Part shown: positions 2,481 through 19,597 of the stretch, piece by piece
How positions within the stretch are numbered: the stretch's first letter is position 1
How the letters are laid out: each line of letters starts with the position of its first letter
Assembly (NCBI RefSeq): GCF_000372725.1
Contig: NW_005201403.1
Coordinates: forward strand, 384,031 to 404,030
Length of the DNA: 20,000 nt
Direction: 5' to 3'
Source: Emiliania huxleyi CCMP1516
Lineage: Eukaryota
The notes under the pieces: model-generated
What the model was told of the DNA's origin: nothing
Database searches by the model: none
What the model saw: only the letters and a program-made list of their open reading frames with translations
Made by a program: the position numbers and the translations under genes

Positions 2481-3661
2481 CGAGGAGGGGGTCGAGGAGG
2501 CGGGGGGGAGGCGAGGCCAGCGGCGAGTCGGCGCGGCGCGGTTGTCTCGCGCGAGAGGCTGGCGGGGCTGCTGCGCGACGCGGTGGAGGAGGAGGCGCGG
2601 CGGAGCGGGCAGGCGGGCGGCGTGGACGGCGCGGACGGCGGCGGCGGGGCTGGCGCCGCGGCAGCGGGCGGGTGGGCGACGCTGCCCCCGCCGCAAGACG
2701 TGCCGCGTGTGGGCGGTGCGCATGTGGCGTACGAGAACGAGGCCCAGGCAAAGGCGGTGGAGGCGCGGCTCCTCGTCGTCCTGCTCGCACCTCCCTCCCT
2801 CTCCTCTCCTCTCCTCCCTCTCCTCTCCTCTCCTCCCCCTCCCCCTCCTCGTCTCGCCAAACAGCGAGCGAGCGCAGCTTCTCGGCACTTTCCCGGCAGT
2901 TTCCCGGCACCTTCGCGGCACCTTTGCGGCACCTTCGACCGCAGGCGCGACTCAAGGCGCACACCCTCAAGCCAAAGGCTGAGCACGGCTCCATCCTCGC
3001 CCTGCTGCTGCCGGCGCTGTCCAGGACACGTCCATGACATGCCCGAGACTTGTCCACAGGCTCCATCCTCGCCCTGCTGCTGCCGGCGCTGCCGTGCGCA
3101 CGCGCCGGAGGGATGCCGCCCGAGCAAATCAGCCTGCAGCAGCCGCGCCGGACCGAGGCGCCGCCCGAGCAAGCGCCGCTTGGGCGGGGCGGTGCAAGCA
3201 GCAGCACGGGCGGTGCAAGCAGCAGCACGGGCGGTGCAAGCAGCAGCACGTGCGGCGCAGGCAGCGGCGTCGGCGCGGGCAGCGGCAGCGGCGTCAGCGC
3301 GGGCAGCGGCAGCGGCGTCGGCGGGTCATCGCCGCGCAACGACAGCTCCGAGCCGTCGGCAGCCCAGCCGGCCGTCCACGCCGACTTCGCCACGCACACC
3401 CTCGGCTTGGCGAGGAGGCTGGTGGCGGAGAAGGTGTGCGGCGGTCCCGCCGGAAGCGAGGAGCAGGGCGAGGCGGCGAGGTTGGCCGCCAGGCTGCAGA
3501 GCGCGCTTCACGCTCGCATGCGGCAGCGGCACACGCTGGGGGGGCAACGCCCGCCGCTTCGGAGCGCATACGATGCGGCCGAGGAGAGCCTCGCTGCCGT
3601 GTTTCGCGACGTGGTGCGAAAGGGGCTCGCAGCGCTCGAGTCGGAGCAGCACGCCCCGTGA
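2481..3661 (+). CDS. Hypothetical protein, 3' exons (..2762, 2945-2987, 3060-3661)
   Basis: Removing GC-AG introns 2763-2944 and 2988-3059 gives a continuous frame ...YENEAQAKAVE/ARLKAHTLKPKAEH/GSILALLLPALP...LAALESEQHAP*. Contains Gly/Ser low-complexity repeats. The 5' boundary is uncertain. Confidence 0.6.
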
Positions 3662-4039: not shown

Positions 4040-7000
4040 TCACTCCTCGGACTTGCCCGCCTGCTGCTCTTTCCACTTCTTGACCATCAGCTCGGTCTTG
4101 TCGCGCGGCGCGGGCACGTGCGCCTTGTACTCCATAGTGTACTCCCCCTTGCCCTGCGTCACGCCTCGCAGGTCGGACGAGAAGCCAAACATGCTCTCGA
4201 GCGGCACGTCCGCGTCGATTGTGACGAACTCGGCGCCCTCCATGCTGTTGACCGTGCCCTTGCGCTGCGAGACGAGCGCCACCGCGGTGCCCTGGAACTC
4301 GGCCGGCACCGCCACCTCCGTCGACATGAGCGGCTCCAGCAGCACCGGCTTCGCCGTCGCCATCGCCTGCTTGAAGGCGCCCTGCGCGGAGGGAAAGGAA
4401 GGGACGGGACGGGACGGGAAAGTGCGGCACACTTCTCCACTCACACGCTGCTAGTGCCAGGGCCGGGCAACCCTCGCGTCTCCACACCTGCGCGGCGGCG
4501 CGGAAGGCCAGCTCGTTCGAGTCGACTGCGTGTGCAAGCCCGTCCTGCAGCACCACCCGCATCCCCATCACCTGCGGGAGGCGCCAGCGACGTGTCGGGG
4601 ACGTGTCGGGGCCATGCGCGCAGGACTACTCGCAGGCCGTGTCACCGGCGAGCCCGTGAGAGTCCCCTTGAGCATCGCCTCGCGGAAGCCCTGTTCGCAG
4701 CTGCAGCCGTGAAGAGACGGTGCGCTGCTTCCTCGCGATTCGGATGGAGGGTGAAGGTGGCGGTGTGGTGCGGTGGCGTGTAGACGAGGGAACGGCAGCT
4801 GACAGCGGCGCCTTGTCGATCGCGGTGACGAACTCGGGCGGGATCATGTTGCCCACGAGCTGGTTGTCGAACTCGTACGCGCCCTGGCCGAGCGCGTCGG
4901 AGGAGATCGGCTCCAGGTAGCCCTCCACCTGCTCTCGGTCAATCTCGGGTCATCTCGGGTAGCCCCGGGTATCTCGACACCGCCTCGGGGTCCATCTGCA
5001 CCCGCCCAAACTGGCCCGAGCCGCCGCTCTGCTTCTTGTGCGTGTAGGCAAACTTGGAGCGCGTCGACGCCGTCTCGCGGAAGGCAACCTTCGGGTTGCC
5101 CGTCGAGCACTCCACCCCGTACTCGCGCTTGAGCCGCTCCACGTAGATCTCGAGGTGGAGCTCGCCCATGCCCGAGATGATGGTCTGGCCCGACTCGTCG
5201 TCGGTGTGCACGCGGAAGGTCGGGTCCTCCTGGGCGGCATGGTTTGGAGGAGGTGTGAGACGAGGCTCAGACGAGGCTCAGACGGGGTTCTGACGGGGTT
5301 CAGACGGGGTTCAGACGGGGTTCAGACGGGGTTCTGACGGGGTGCTCCCCGCTGCCGCGAGGGGCGGCGGGCGGCGCTCCTTGGTGAAGCGGCCGAGCGC
5401 CTTTGAGAAGTTTGGCGCGTTCTTGTCGGCAGGCACCAGCGCGAGCGAGATGACCTGACGGACATGTCATGAACGTGTCCTGGACGTGTCCTGGACGGCA
5501 CCAGCGCGAGCGAGCTGACCGGATCGGGGACAAACATCGACGTCATCGACAGCTTCGTCTTGCCGTCGGTGAAGGTGGTGCCCGAGGCGCAGTCGACGCC
5601 GAACATGGCGACGATGTCGCCCGCGCCGACCGACTCGACGTCCTCCATCTCGTTGGCGTGCATGCGGACGAGCCGCGGGATGCGAACCTTGCGCCGGACC
5701 CGAGATTACCCGAGATTGCCCGAGATTATCCGAGATTTCCTGAGATTGCCCGAGATGGCGGGGGGGCGAACCTTGCGCCGGTCCGCCGCCATCGACTGGA
5801 TCGTGTCGCCGCGGCCAACCTTGCCCTGGTAGATGCGCATGTACGTCAGCTGGCCGAACTTCCCCTCCTCGAGCTTGAAGGCGAGCCTATGGTCATGTCT
5901 CGGACGTGTCATGCACGTGTCCTCGACATGTCCCCTCCTCCAGCTTGAAGGCGAGCCTATGGTCATGTCTCGGACGTGTCATGCACGTGTCCTCGACATG
6001 TCCCCTCCTCCAGCTTGAAGGCGAGCCTATGGTCATGTCTCGGACGTGTCATGCACGTGTCCTCGACATGTCCCCTCCTCCAGCTTGAAGGCGAGCCTAT
6101 GGTCATGTCTCGGACGTGTCATGCACGTGTCCTCGACATGTCCCCTCCTCCAGCTTGAAGGCGAGCCTATGGTCATGTCTCGGACGTGTCATGCACGTGT
6201 CCTCGACATGTCCCCTCCTCCAGCTTGAAGGCGAGCCTATGGTCATGTCTCGGACGTGTCATGCACGTGTCCTCGACATGTCCCCTCCTCCAGCTTGAAG
6301 GCGAGCCTATGGTCATGTCTCGGACGTGTCATGCACGTGTCCTCGACAGGTCCCCTCCTCCAGCTTGAAGGCGAGCCTATGGTCATGTCTCGGACGTGTC
6401 ATGCACGTGTCCTCGACATGTCCCCTCCTCCAGCTTGAAGGCGAGCCTATGGTCATGTCTCGGACGTGTCATGCACGTGTCCTCGACATGTCCCCTCCTC
6501 CAGCTTGAAGGCGAGCCTATGGTCATGTCTCGGACGTGTCATGCACGTGTCCTCGACATGTCCCCTCCTCCAGCTTGAAGGCGAGCCTATGGTCATGTCT
6601 CGGACGTGTCATGCACGTGTCCTCGACATGTCCCCTCCTCCAGCTTGAAGGCGAGCCTATGGTCATGTCTCGGACGTGTCATGCACGTGTCCTCGACATG
6701 TCCCCTCCTCCAGCTTGAAGGCGAGCCTATGGTCATGTCTCGGACGTGTCATGCACGTGTCCTCGACATGTCCCCTCCTCCAGCTTGAAGGCGAGCCTAT
6801 GGTCATGTCTCGGACGTGTCATGCACGTGTCCTCGACATGTCCCCTCCTCCAGCTTGAAGGCGAGCCTATGGTCATGTCTCGGACGTGTCATGCACGTGT
6901 CCTCGACATGTCCCCTCCTCCAGCTTGAAGGCGAGCCTATGGTCATGTCTCGGACGTGTCATGCACGTGTCCTCGACATGTCCCCTCCTCCAGCTTGAAG

Positions 7001-9536
7001 GCGAGCCTATGGTCATGTCTCGGACGTGTCATGCACGTGTCCTCGACATGTCCCCTCCTCCAGCTTGAAGGCGAGCCTATGGTCATGTCTCGGACGTGTC
7101 ATGCACGTGTCCTCGACATGTCCCCTCCTCCAGCTTGAAGGCGAGCCTATGGTCATGTCTCGGACGTGTCATGCACGTGTCCTCGACATGTCCCCTCCTC
7201 CAGCTTGAAGGCGAGCCTATGGTCATGTCTCGGACGTGTCATGCACGTGTCCTCGACATGTCCCCTCCTCCAGCTTGAAGGGTAGCCTATGGTCATGTCT
7301 CGGACGTGTCATGCACGTGTCCTCGACATGTCCCCTCCTCCAGCTTGAAGGCGAGCCTATGGTCATGTCTCGGACGTGTCATGCACGTGTCCTCGACATG
7401 TCCCCTCCTCCAGCTTGAAGGCGAGCCTATGGTCATGTCTCGGACGTGTCATGCACGTGTCCTCGACATGTCCCCTCCTCCAGCTTGAAGGCGAGCCTAT
7501 GGTCATGTCTCGGACGTGTCATGCACGTGTCCTCGACATGTCCCCTCCTCCAGCTTGAAGGCGAGCCTATGGTCATGTCTCGGACGTGTCATGCACGTGT
7601 CCTCGACATGTCCCCTCCTCCAGCTTGAAGGCGAGCCTATGGTCATGTCTCGGACGTGTCATGCACGTGTCCTCGACATGTCCCCTCCTCCAGCTTGAAG
7701 GCGAGCCTATGGTCATGTCTCGGACGTGTCATGCACGTGTCCTCGACATGTCCCCTCCTCCAGCTTGAAGGCGAGCCTATGGTCATGTCTCGGACGTGTC
7801 ATGCACGTGTCCTCGACAGGTCCCCTCCTCCAGCTTGAAGGCGAGCCTATGGTCATGTCTCGGACGTGTCATGCACGTGTCCTCGACATGTCCCCTCCTC
7901 CAGCTTGAAGGCGAGCCTATGGTCATGTCTCGGACGTGTCATGCACGTGTCCTCGACAGGTCCCCTCCTCCAGCTTGAAGGCGAGCCTATGGTCATGTCT
8001 CGGACGTGTCATGCACGTGTCCTCGACATGTCCCCTCCTCGAGCTTGAAGGCGAGCCTATGGTCATGTCTCGGACGTGTCATGCACGTGTCCTCGACAGG
8101 TCCCCTCCTCCAGCTTGAAGGCGAGATAATATATATATATACCCGACGAACGGGTCCGACGACACACCCGTGAGCCCCACCTGCTCCTCGTCCTTGTCCA
8201 AGTCGAGCGCGCAGTTGGTCACCTCGGTCGGCGCCGGCAGGTAGCTCACCACGCCGTCCAGGAGCGGCTGCACGCCCTTGTTCTTGAAGGCGCTCCCCAT
8301 GAAGACGGGCGTGATCGCATTCGCGATCGTCTGGCGCCGGATCGCGGCACGCAGCACCCCGAGCGGCGGCTCCTCCTCGGCGAGGTAGAACTCTGCTATC
8401 TCCTCGTCGGCGTCTGCGAGCTTCTCGAGCAGCTCCGCGCGCTTCTCCTCCATGGCGGCCTGCAGCCCGGCAGGAACCTCCCCCTCCTCCACCTCCTCCC
8501 CGCCAGGCCCAGAGAAGCGGAGGGCCCTGCGCTCCAGCAGGTCGACCACACCCTCGTGGTCGCCGCTCACGCCGATCGGGATCTGCATTGCCACCGCGTT
8601 GAGCCGCAGCTTATCGCGCAGCTGGCCGATCACCGCGTCTGCACGGCGGAGGATGGCCCGAGATGGCCCGAGATGGCCCGAGATGGCCCGAGATGGCCCG
8701 AGATGACCCAATCACTGCGTCTGTGCGGCGGGTGCGCGAGGGTCGTCGAGGAGTGTCTGGGAGGTGCCTGCGCAGTGTCCAGGCAGTGCCATCCCAGTGC
8801 CGTCGCAGCGTCCAAGCCACTGTCTCGGCGGGAGAAGTGTCCCGGAAGTGTCACCCCACCTGGGTCGGAGCCCTCGCGGTCGAGCTTGTTGATGAAGGCG
8901 AGCCGCGGGACAGAGTACCGCCTGAGGAGGCCGGGCGCCGGCGACACTCCGGCGGCAGCGCAGCGGGGCGGGCGCGGCTACTCGCGGCGGAGGCGAGGCG
9001 AGGCGAGGCGAGGCGGCGGAGCGTGCCTCATCTGCCGGTCGACGGTGATGGATTGCGATTGCACGCCGGCGACGCCGCAGAGGACGAGGATGGCGCCGTC
9101 GAGGACGCGCAGCGCACGCTCCACCTAGTGTGCACACGGCCGGCGGAAGTTGGCGCCGCCCGCAAGGTTCGCTCGGCCGGAGGGCCGCCGCCTCGATGGT
9201 GAAGTCGACGTGGCCAGGAGTGTCGATCACGTTGATATCGTGGTCGCCCCAGGCGCAGTGCGTTGCGGCCGACTGGATGGTGATGCCCTTCTCACGCTCC
9301 AGCTCCATAAAGTCCATCTTGGCGCCCACGCCGTCCTTTCCGCGGACCTCGTGGATGGCGCCGATACGTCCCGTATAATACAAGATTCGCTCAGTGAGCG
9401 TGGTCTTGCCAGAATCGATGTGCGCGCTGATGCCGATGTTTCGCACGCTCTGTGGCTCGCTGGAGCTGGAGAGCCTCCTCGTGAAGGCGAGCAGCCGCCG
9501 CGACGCGGCTGCTCTCCTGCCGACAGGACACAGCAT
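4040..9536 (-). CDS. GFM1: Mitochondrial elongation factor G (EF-G1), 12 exons, 724 aa
   Basis: Exons 9536-9192, 9124-9027, 8921-8860, 8638-8143, 5886-5772, 5687-5520, 5454-5380, 5229-5002, 4928-4812, 4690-4646, 4571-4488 and 4381-4040 sum to 2175 nt in frame. Motifs: [78 protein letters not shown]. The Arg/Ser-rich N-terminus resembles a mitochondrial transit peptide. Confidence 0.96.
5861..8125. repeat. 70-bp tandem array (~32.4 copies) forming EF-G intron 4 (5887-8142)
   Basis: Near-perfect 70-bp period. Variants: CAGG for CATG in the units at 6341, 7811, 7951 and 8091; GGTAG at 7281; G for C at 5871 and 8041. Confidence 0.98.
8651..8709. repeat. (GATGGCCCGA)n 10-mer repeat in EF-G intron 3
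   Basis: About 5.5 copies. Related (CCCGAGATTN)n repeats lie at 5699-5757 and (CCGAGATGTG)n at 18931-18998. Confidence 0.9.
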
Positions 9537-14172: not shown

Positions 14173-15132
14173 CTGAGCCCTAGCTGTCAGGCTGTCAGAT
14201 ATTGCTGTCAGGTGATCTGTCGGGCTGTCGGGCACTGTCAGGCACTGTCAGGTGCCTCTGTCAGACCAGCTGTCAGGTGCTGTCAGTGCTGTCGGGTGCT
14301 GTCCGGTGCTTGTCTGACAGGCGAGGTGCTCTGGTGCTGTCAGGTGCTGTCGGAGCTGTCGGGTGGTGCTGTCAGACGCTGTCGGAGCTGTCAGAGCTGT
14401 CAGGCTGCTGCTGCTGTCAGACGTAGGGCCGGTACTGTCAGGTGCTGTCAAGTGGTGCTGTTGGGGTGCTGTCAGGCTCTGACACTCACCAGCCACACTT
14501 ATGACACTATCAAGAGGAGACCGCAGCCAGTGAGAGTAGATCCACACAGTATAGGTCTCCCGGGGAGCGCAGATGGCGGCGCAGGCGCAGACCGCGGCGG
14601 CGGCACAAGCGGCGGCGGCCACCCCCACCCAGACGCCGTAGGCACATACTGTAGGGCCCCAGAAGGCTAGCTGGTAGCTTCATTTGTAGTAGCACAGCCG
14701 CCGGTGCTAGGGGTCCGCAGAGGTGAGGCGGGAGGGTTAAGAGTCAGAGAGCGCCCATGAGACCATCCCATGACCACATGGACCACACTCACATGCACAT
14801 GCAGTAGTTTTGTTAAACTCTCATGGGGCACAAGAAAGAGGCTGTATACGGTCTGTGTACGGTCTGTGCTGCTGTCGGGCTGGTCGGGCTGTCGGGCTGT
14901 CAGCGCTGCTGTCAGGCCACTGTGTGCTGTCGGGCTGTCGGGCAGCTGTCAGGCTGTCACGTTAGGGCCTGACAGCGACGGAGCACCTCGCCTGTCAGAC
15001 TCTGCTGTTCAGGCTGTCAGATACGTGCTGTCAGGCTGTCGGAGAAAGTGCTGTCAGCGCTGTCAGGCTGTCGGGCACTGTCAGGCGCTGTCCGGGCGGG
15101 GTTTGCTGTCAGGCTGTCAGACCAGGGCTCAG
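14173..15132. mobile_element. Non-autonomous DNA transposon (MITE-like), 960 bp, 8-bp TSD
   Basis: TIR CTGAGCCCT (14173-14181) / AGGGCTCAG (15124-15132). Identical flanking ACTTCTGC at 14165-14172 and 15133-15140. Dense subterminal CTGTCAG/CTGTCGG repeats at both ends. Confidence 0.85.
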
Positions 15133-15305
15133 ACTTCTGCTTATACGCATGTTGAAATATGTACACGTACGGCGAGAGCACGGCCTCCAGCTCGCAGCGC
15201 GAGGTGGGTGGGTGGGGGGGGGGGGTATCCCCCGGGGCGTGTGACGGGTCGTTCGCAAGCACGAGAGGATCCGACACGGCCCTAGGTCCTTTCCCACGAC
15301 CTTCG

Positions 15306-16608
15306 ATGATGAACGCGACGCCTGCCGACGGCCTCGCGTCGCTGATCCAGAACTCAGAGAGGCTCCTAGCCCTGCGGGCGAAGCTTCCGACGGCCGGGTT
15401 GCTGCAAACGCCGACACCAAGAGACTTCACCGACTTTGTTGCCGTCGCGGCGTGCTTCCTCATCTTCAACCTTCTCGTCATCCGCTTCACCGCTCCAGCA
15501 CCTGATGTTTTGCGCCGCATAGACTACGCGATGCGACAGTTCTCGATGCTCTGCTTCACCATCCTTGCTCGCTGGGGCTGGATGACGCTCGCGGTCTACT
15601 ACAGCCCTTGGGCGGCGATCGCCGCCTGGCCGCTTGCAATCTTTGAGACATGGTCCGTTCAGTTCAACGCCGACGTATACGAAGGACGTGCCATGAAGGG
15701 AGTAACGTGGCGTCACGCGAGCAAGGCTCGTGTCCCCGCTCGCGCCTCGCTGCCACCGCGCCAACCCGCCACCGCGGGCTCTCTAGCACCTCCCAACCAG
15801 CGCCTCGCTGTACTCGTCTCACTCACGCCCCCCCCCGGCCTCAGTGCCTCGTCGTGCTCGTGATGGAGGGGTTCGGCGTCTTCGCCGGCTTCCCGCTGGT
15901 AGTCAAGCTGCTCGGGTGGCGCCAGATGAGCTCGGGCGCGCCGACCGGGGCGATGCTGCTCCACGGAGCCGCGGGCATGACGCTCGCCTACGACCTCGGC
16001 CTGGACTTTGCCTTCTACCTCTTTCACCGCGCCTGCCACGAGAACAGGCGCCTCCCGAGAGAAGCGACCCCCGCCGCCAGCCAGGTCCCTGACCACTTCC
16101 CGTATGCCCGCACCCTGCCCCCGAGGCTCCTGTACCGCTGGATCCACAAGGAGCACCACACCGACACGGGCAAGGCGTTCGGTCCGCTCGTCGCCTTTGA
16201 GACGTGCGCCTGCAGATCGATCACGGATTGAAGTTTGCCCCGCTCATGCGCCGCAGAACCGCTGACGCACATCCCCAACGCGCGAGGCAGGTACACAATC
16301 ACCTGGTCCGAGGCGTCCTTCATCATGGTGGGGTACGTGCTTGGGCTCGCGCTCGCGGGCATCGTTGCCGCCGTCTTTGGCAGCGACGTGACACTTTTTC
16401 ACCTCGCTCTGCTCTTGTCATGGGGTTGCCGCCCATCCCCTCGCAACAGCCCTCGCTGCCTCTCCGCCGCCGCCCTCATGACACCTCTGCCCCCCCTTGG
16501 CCCTCGCACCCTCACTACCGCCTTCACCCCAGTCGCCTCGCCCCCACCCTCGCCCCCACCCCCAGGCCACTTGGTCGAGCTGCTGGGCCACTCGACCATG
16601 AGCTGGTC

Positions 16609-16660
<52 letters not shown>

Positions 16661-16998
16661 ACGCGTCCGCCTGTGACGCCCCTCCACTGTGTGGCTCATA
16701 GGACGATCAACGGCAACCCCCTCCGGCTGCTGCACGAGACTCTAGGCATCGAGCTAAAGGCGACTGCCCCTCCTCTCCCTCACGAGAAGGCTGTCTACGC
16801 GTGTGCTCACTCCCCACCCCGCGCGCCCCCGCACCGCTTCAGGTTCCCGACCACACCATGCACCACATCAAGCCCCTGTCCAACTACGGCAAGCGCACTG
16901 TGGTGTGGGACAAGCTCTTTGGCACTTACACCGCGCCTCCCGCCGCTCTCTACGACGCGCGGTGCGTGTCTGCCGACGGGAAGCCCAAGGCGCCCTGA
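15306..16998 (+). CDS. Fatty acid hydroxylase / sterol desaturase family membrane protein, 7 exons, 362 aa
   Basis: Exons 15306-15725, 15845-16047, 16126-16203, 16291-16424, 16566-16605, 16702-16759 and 16843-16998 sum to 1089 nt. His boxes FYLFHRACH, WIHKEHH, GHS and DHTMHH are followed by NYG...WDKLFGT, plus hydrophobic segments. Confidence 0.88.
16611..16659. repeat. (GA)n microsatellite in desaturase intron 5
   Basis: Direct observation. Confidence 0.95.
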
Positions 16999-17080
16999 CG
17001 CCGCCGTTGAGTACCGTTGTTCAAAGAGTGCTGGGGGCGGCCGCTCCAACGGCGGCTTCGGACCGTGGGCACGCGTACTT

Positions 17081-17485
17081 CTCGCGCCACGTGTGCTCTC
17101 TGCCTTGACTAGCTAGTGCATGCCTGCATGCCGTACGCTGCGCCGCCCGCCACACGACTTGTGGCCAGCGGAGTACCTTTGTCGACCGTAACATGATGTG
17201 CGGTGCACGTGTACTAGAACGCGAACCCACGTGCGACCACTCGTGCACTCGTCTTTGTGGTTGTGTCTTTTGCTGAGTAATGAGGTACTCGCGCCACGTG
17301 TGCTCTCTGCCTTGACTAGCTAGTGCATGCCTGCATGCCGTACGCTGCGCCACCCGCCACACGACTTGTGGCCAGCGGAGTACCTTTGTCGACCGTAACA
17401 TGATGTGCGGTGCACGTGTACTAGAACGCGAACCCACGTGCGACCACTCGAGCACTCGTCTTTGTGGTTGTGTCTTTTGCTGAGT
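17081..17485. repeat. Tandem duplication, 2 x 198 bp (period 207)
   Basis: 17081-17278 and 17288-17485 differ at 2 positions that I could see, with a 9-bp spacer AATGAGGTA. Confidence 0.93.

Positions 17486-18363: not shown

Positions 18364-19597
<1,234 letters not shown>

Follow-up and report, generated by a model that had tools for sequence, protein, structure and literature searches.

Intron 4 of the mitochondrial elongation factor G (EF-G) gene of Emiliania huxleyi CCMP1516 is a row of 32 consecutive units, each of which looks like an intron of its own, and this raises the question of how exon 4 comes to be joined to the last of so many similar acceptors. The gene lies on the minus strand of a 20,000-nucleotide (nt) stretch of contig NW_005201403.1 (assembly GCF_000372725.1, positions 384,031 to 404,030), which is called the window below and to which all coordinates refer. 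The array of intron 4 is a minisatellite in which a complete GC-AG intron serves as the 70-nt unit. We consider it an even chance that its removal takes several splicing steps and not one, a proposal drawn from the sequence. An initial annotation of this DNA had considered stepwise removal at zero-length-exon ratchet points. Of that interpretation the reality of the array and the plausibility of its donor stood; it had overlooked that the array is a minisatellite of variable copy number, that its unit is the whole intron on another allele, and that repeats spanning splice junctions are already described (mirages, UBC, CBS and F7, see below).

The EF-G gene

4040..9536, minus strand: mitochondrial elongation factor G gene, 12 exons, 724 amino acids (open frame, protein matches, RNA joins)
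8143..8638, minus strand: exon 4, 496 nt, ending in GTCGG (gene model, match to protein P0001)
5887..8142, minus strand: intron 4, 2256 nt (flanking exons joined in RNA runs X11 and X13)
5772..5886, minus strand: exon 5, 115 nt (not divisible by three); its opening 26 nt, 5886-5861, are the segment copied into the units (gene model)
5688..5771, minus strand: intron 5, 84 nt, GT donor, between 16-nt direct repeats (RNA joins, comparison with contig L001)

EF-G is required for mitochondrial translation. The 12-exon model (9536-4040) gives an uninterrupted frame of 724 amino acids. Over exon 4 the model is 100% identical to P0001, a protein named as putative mitochondrial elongation factor of E. 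huxleyi, and the best PDB matches are mitochondrial EF-G (E 3.6e-42). Two further proteins agree with the model without gaps at 99.7%, P0003 over amino acids 31-724 and P0002 over 147-724, and introns 5-11 are spliced out in RNA contigs. The array had thus rightly been placed in intron 4 of EF-G. The public gene model P0001 has the correct exon 4-exon 5 join; elsewhere it departs from the transcript-like proteins over several short stretches that seem to lie close to non-GT introns.

The other ten introns of the gene measure 65-221 nt, so that intron 4 with 2.3 kb is 10 times as long as the next longest. Three of them have GC donors and one has a GA donor. The latter is intron 7 (5230-5379, minus strand), with the apparent donor AAG/GAGCGC and a join supported by RNA contigs; it also carries an 11-nt repeat with one unit more than in L001. 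GC is the commonest donor of E. huxleyi, with 56-65% of the junctions (PMC4028052).

Architecture of the array

8057..8142, minus strand: first unit, 86 nt, donor GG/GTATAT (unit analysis of the window)
8126..8141, minus strand: 16-nt TA-rich insert in the first unit, which turns a GC donor into a GT donor (seen in the window only)
5887..8056, minus strand: 31 tandem 70-nt GC...AG units (Tandem Repeats Finder, unit analysis; circular 100-nt contigs in runs X1, X4, X9 and X11)
7987..8056, minus strand: unit 1, whose first 26 nt equal exon 5 (unit analysis)
7217..7286, minus strand: unit 12, variant start GCTACC, without the G at +5 (unit analysis)

On the minus strand the intron runs from 8142 to 5887, and its 2256 nt divide without remainder into one unit of 86 nt and 31 of 70 nt; apart from the insert its size is an exact multiple of the unit (32 x 70 + 16). 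Tandem Repeats Finder reports a period of 70 with 32.4 copies, 99% matches and a score of 4474. The start GCTCGCC is found in 30 of the 31 70-nt units, the exception being unit 12 (from 7286) with GCTACCC, and all 31 end in CATAG. Each of the 31 boundaries between units therefore reads AG/GCT, an acceptor abutting a donor of the GC and not the GT kind. The consensus is matched exactly by 26/31 of these units. Among the deviations are A>C at unit position 28 (units 2, 4, 25 and the 86-nt unit) and G>C at position 16 (unit 1).

A 70-nt unit is composed of 26 nt copied from the start of exon 5 and a 44-nt filler rich in GACACGT/GACATG. The consensus agrees with exon 5 at 25 of these 26 positions, for which the chance is about 1.5e-13. 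Unit 1 is identical to it over 26/26 nt, including the exon-type base at position 16, which looks like the trace of an unequal exchange. The repeat of period 70 extends 26 nt into exon 5, i.e. it crosses the intron-exon boundary. Decoy and true acceptors have 70 nt upstream and 25-26 nt downstream in common, and a donor-like site is found 70 nt downstream of every decoy. If exon 4 is conceptually spliced to unit 1, the frame gives [20 protein letters not shown], followed by TGA. All this bears out the layout given in the initial annotation, which had described the 86-nt unit and the 31 units with their common starts and ends and one variant start, the copy of the exon start in each of them, acceptors essentially identical to the true one, and a premature TGA at a decoy. 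A coding repeat can be ruled out, since the array has stops in every reading frame, 70 not being a multiple of three.

The array in other samples

Six of 20 listed sequencing runs were examined (X1, X3, X4, X9, X11 and X13), all as assembled contigs. X11 and X13 are RNA runs; X1, X4 and X9 have no library record and were taken as genomic due to contigs of 84-292 kb and, in X1, cover through introns. A metagenome scan added one locus, the marine contig L001. It carries the same gene with a single 70-nt GC-AG intron in this place, and although a short-read assembler may have collapsed several copies there, the boundary between exon 4 and GC must have existed in the reads.

In X1, X4, X9 and X11 we found a 100-nt contig that is the unit closed on itself (70 nt plus 30 nt overlap), and in X3 the unit-to-unit join is present as a loose contig end. 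Since L001, with its single unit, lacks 14 of the 70 31-mers in the unit cycle, such circular contigs indicate joins between units in the sample itself. Unit-to-unit joins are thus found in 4/4 genomic-type runs (X1, X3, X4 and X9). The initial annotation had named an assembly artefact as one outcome that would refute its reading; a pure artefact is ruled out by these contigs with their 31-mers foreign to L001. At several bases X1 and X3 do not agree with the window, and they are probably not its source haplotype. The exact unit-to-unit join was found neither in a genome contig collection nor in a viral contig collection (0 in each), as expected for a eukaryote.

The copy number of the array appears to differ widely between samples. 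The window holds 32 units and L001 one, possibly collapsed. The ratio of circular-contig depth to single-copy flank depth is 36-57 in X1, 20-26 in X3, 3.8 in X4 and 2.7 in X9; contig depth is a rough measure and not a copy number, and we claim from it a more than tenfold spread between runs.

The TA-rich insert of the first unit

What makes the first unit 86 nt long is a stretch of 16 TA-rich bases (8141-8126), inserted between the G and the C of the donor of an otherwise 70-nt unit. The insert is missing from L001. In four of four runs (X1, X4, X9 and X11) no contig covers it, a gap in cover which proves nothing: our 93% likeness cut probably removes contigs with a 16-nt gap (91.7%), and X9 and X11 are thereby uncovered over 8141-8262. 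The exon-4 contigs of both X1 and X4 terminate exactly at 8142, and contigs of X1 break at L001:1626, a site that is variable between runs. This hints at two alleles at base 8142 in X1 and X4, which look heterozygous at the intron start; the insert itself is not demonstrated thereby.

One could suppose that the assembler joined a TA-marked short allele to a long GC allele, so that the array exists in a layout different from that of the window. Taken together, the 86-nt unit and the 26 nt that open unit 1 look exactly like a single-intron allele, the insert is in none of the runs, and the run of N near 2250-2349 marks the assembly as scaffolded. However, one unequal crossover or gene conversion yields the same layout, and the array itself remains, being present in other samples. 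We regard such a mosaic as very improbable.

Splice sites used in RNA

The join of exon 4 to exon 5 is found in contigs of both RNA runs (X11 at depth 325, X13 at depth 16) and skips 70 nt of L001. Only the outer donor and the last acceptor are seen in use in the RNA contigs. On L001 four registers of the intron have an AG acceptor, of which shift 0 (GCTCGC) alone combines a GT, GC or GA donor with the exon-type base. Shift 13 would need a CT donor, and shifts 19 (GA) and 22 (GG) would leave the unit-type base in the mRNA. The mRNA of X11 retains the exon-type base at unit position 16, and therefore the donor on the GC allele is GG/GCTCGC. GCTCGC, which had earlier been compared with other GC donors of the window, very probably functions as donor, being the sole fitting register in L001.

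The circular unit contig of X11 has a depth of 74.8, which summed over copies is 0.20-0.23 of the mRNA depth (325-382). Clean mRNA thus predominates in a sample that has two or more units. X13 has no circular unit contig among the pieces listed.

These RNA data could also come from leaky long alleles, in which early acceptors yield RNAs with a premature stop, which the cell degrades or retains, while the normal mRNA stems mainly from a short allele or a correctly spliced fraction. Use of an early acceptor gives TGA after about 354 amino acids, the array sequence in the RNA of X11 could be such a product, intron retention is frequent in E. huxleyi (PMC4028052), and X1 and X4 have the apparent heterozygosity described above. 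On the other hand, the high depth ratios in two samples and the window itself suggest that long alleles are not rare, and the peptide of a decoy read-through was found in 0/120 homologous proteins, which is weak evidence. We think this explanation improbable.

Removal of the array in one or in several steps

How, then, is the last acceptor reached? The ends of the unit suggest a way in which the array could have arisen and could be removed. The intron may have been born as a 26-nt duplicate of the start of exon 5 plus filler, with its donor from the duplicate and its acceptor from the filler. Direct repeats would thereby lie at both intron ends and let unequal crossing-over or slippage add whole units. 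With introns as short as those of this gene (65-221 nt), the spliceosome would be expected to join a donor to an acceptor close by. Such pairing would fit splicing by intron definition, as which we read the excess of retention over exon skipping reported for E. huxleyi, where 478 of 535 introns have intronic reads as against 8 exon skips (PMC4028052). Any splice within the array would leave a shorter array headed by G/GCTCGC, the donor of the single-unit allele, and could be spliced again. The donor of such a product matches the exon-intron boundary of L001 in sequence, and its re-use after a splice is predicted. A splice to a decoy would thus not have to be a dead end. The series would stop at exon 5: the next acceptor past the final exon 4-exon 5 join is that of intron 5 at a distance of 199 nt, which already has a GT donor of its own at only 84 nt. 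Re-splicing to that acceptor would drop the 115-nt exon 5 and shift the frame.

In a simulation restricted to the array, from which the acceptor of intron 5 was excluded, the correct join was reached in 500/500 runs when the nearest acceptor was chosen (32 steps) and likewise in 500/500 runs when the choice was random (mean 6 steps). Stepwise removal is allowed by the sequence; the simulation does not show its occurrence. Self-correction of this kind would account for the tolerated expansion, and we read the array as tolerated, not adaptive.

The array could instead be an ordinary junction-spanning minisatellite that is removed at once, from the first donor to the last acceptor, with the latter defined across exon 5 together with the GT donor of intron 5 and perhaps helped by folding, while the internal sites stay silent. 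The clean join is the sole one in the mRNA contigs, and pairing between units is predicted. Splicing is undisturbed by the amphioxus mirages (PMC3087553), human CBS 844ins68 prefers its distal copy (PMC2630376), and in human F7 only the first of several identical donors is used (PMC1557585). These analogues are all from animals, however. The decoys also have a donor-like site 70 nt downstream, so that exon definition is not selective for the last acceptor, and a 2.3-kb intron would have to be recognised in a gene whose other introns are far shorter. Local folding does not separate the true acceptor from the decoys either, their predicted accessibility being similar (unpaired 0.41 as against 0.37-0.47). 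Removal in one step seems to us the less likely course, if the most plausible of the alternatives weighed here.

Several points weigh against removal in several steps. Its support comes from assembled contigs, which displayed no intermediate or lariat. The unit-to-unit contig of X11 may be pre-mRNA, an intermediate, a retained intron or DNA, the alleles behind X11 and X13 may not include the window's own, and the possible collapse in L001 and the roughness of contig depth have been mentioned. The finished mRNA has the same donor, as the initial annotation had cautioned, and among the joins listed none shows it spliced again at that donor; the sequence alone is therefore insufficient for splicing to continue. 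In Drosophila regenerated splice sites are blocked by the exon junction complex (PMC8184009). The choice of one copy in CBS and F7 points the same way, and the unit is predicted to fold more stably than shuffled sequences (z -2.0 to -2.7), so that the array could be looped out.

If the array is indeed removed stepwise, it would represent recursive splicing of very high density in an organism other than an animal, in which regenerated donors are re-used many times and yet splicing halts at the real exon, and it would bear on how re-splicing of mRNA is avoided. Natural alleles of very different length make stepwise removal testable. On the GC allele a splicing intermediate has the same sequence as a shorter pre-mRNA. 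The TA-marked allele is informative because exon 4 joined to the start of a unit cannot derive from its DNA. If the array is removed in one step, it is another mirage-type repeat and a good strain marker.

Comparison with known repeats at splice junctions

The closest known systems are the mirage minisatellites of amphioxus, found in Adh3 and the globins BflGb6 and BflGb9 (PMC3087553). Their units of 10-160 bp carry splice signals, occur in 6 versus 3 copies between haplotypes, and have been proposed to be linked to intron gain. As in mirages, the EF-G repeat lies across an intron-exon boundary, its copy number differs between samples as far as rough depth tells, and clean mRNA is made in related samples. 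However, a mirage unit consists of an intron end and an exon start, while the EF-G unit is an entire intron that stands single on another allele. The EF-G array moreover has a GC donor and an acceptor in each unit, 32 copies at 99% identity, and a haptophyte host.

Dual-specific splice sites within tandem repeats were described for human UBC and VCX3A, with 77 introns that are multiples of the repeat unit, and the authors proposed that the possibility of splicing such expansions out makes them tolerable (PMC10809524). In EF-G, too, the unit boundary could serve as donor or acceptor and intron length is a unit multiple, exactly 70 in L001. The motif is AG/GC in contrast to the AGGT of the UBC type, and the AGGT that marks that type is absent at these boundaries. 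While UBC retains a variable number of coding monomers, the EF-G unit is non-coding, out of frame and contains a stop, and therefore all copies must go.

With the recursive splicing of Drosophila ratchet points and vertebrate RS-exons (PMC8605326) the array shares abutting acceptor-donor pairs, a donor that would be regenerated on splicing, and a predicted short out-of-frame cryptic exon after each site. Ratchet points are, however, conserved, lie isolated within long introns and have been demonstrated through intermediates, whereas EF-G has 31 identical polymorphic sites with a spacing of 70 nt, known from sequence. Neither conservation nor a long intron is found here: the intron has 2.3 kb, L001 has one unit, and depth ratios range from about 3 to about 50. 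Because its sites are not conserved and the contigs displayed no RNA intermediates, we do not file the array as a ratchet-point system.

CBS 844ins68 (PMC2630376) and the 37-bp variable-number tandem repeat in F7 intron 7 (PMC1557585) resemble the array in their duplicated junctions, identical decoys and normal mRNA. Unlike EF-G, both repeat one kind of site, of which one copy is selected, and no unit is a complete intron.

In a literature search of limited reach no paper listed described this array, other arrays of whole introns in E. huxleyi, or recursive splicing within a tandem repeat; passages of PMC13196383 do not describe it either. What is new is a minisatellite unit that is a whole GC-AG intron; as a class, repeats spanning junctions are already known.

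Introns of the same build

5455..5519, minus strand: intron 6 of EF-G, 65 nt, built like one array unit (RNA joins, gene model)
2988..3059, plus strand: 72-nt GC-AG intron-like insert in a neighbouring reading frame, made of an exact 32-nt copy of what follows it and similar filler

Intron 6 consists of a copy of the start of the following exon (22/23 nt) and filler of the GACACGT type. The insert at 2988-3059 has an in-frame stop in the apparent frame and is missing from L001, where it would lie between 539 and 540; this suggests, as a candidate, a presence/absence polymorphism of an intron, or a collapse in L001. Introners, i.e. transposon-derived introns, are dispersed over a genome in near-identical copies. 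The three introns compared in the 20-kb window share build and filler motifs without being near-identical. That three introns within 20 kb have one build, and that another allele lacks one of them, suggests that introns are still being gained by local duplication. More tentatively, and with odds that we put a little below even, E. huxleyi may make introns as modules of a next-exon copy plus GACACGT filler, which regenerate their donor, multiply like minisatellites and lead to up to about 32 serial splices at one position of a housekeeping pre-mRNA, strains with 1 to about 50 units forming an allelic series.

Introns 6 and 5 of EF-G are both flanked by direct repeats (22/23 nt and 16 nt, respectively); one copies the start of the next exon, the other also the end of the preceding exon. 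Repeat motifs of 10-11 nt fill introns and spacers at 8652-8709, 5698-5756, 18931-18994 and 14203-15120. The one in intron 5 draws contigs at more than 1000 times the flank depth and therefore belongs to a very abundant genome-wide family.

Neighbouring sequence

The run of N at about 2250-2349 is a scaffold gap. In the neighbouring reading frame a 21-nt repeat at 3192-3239 (plus strand) is 42 nt longer than in L001 and stays in frame, and is thus a coding difference in repeat length. At about 15300-17000 (plus strand) lies a multi-exon gene with His-rich motifs visible by eye and a GC donor-like site at 15726, which we take to be perhaps fatty-acid hydroxylase or sterol-desaturase like. Just past the stop codon of a gene, a 207-nt tandem duplication with 98% identity is found at 17081-17485 (plus strand).

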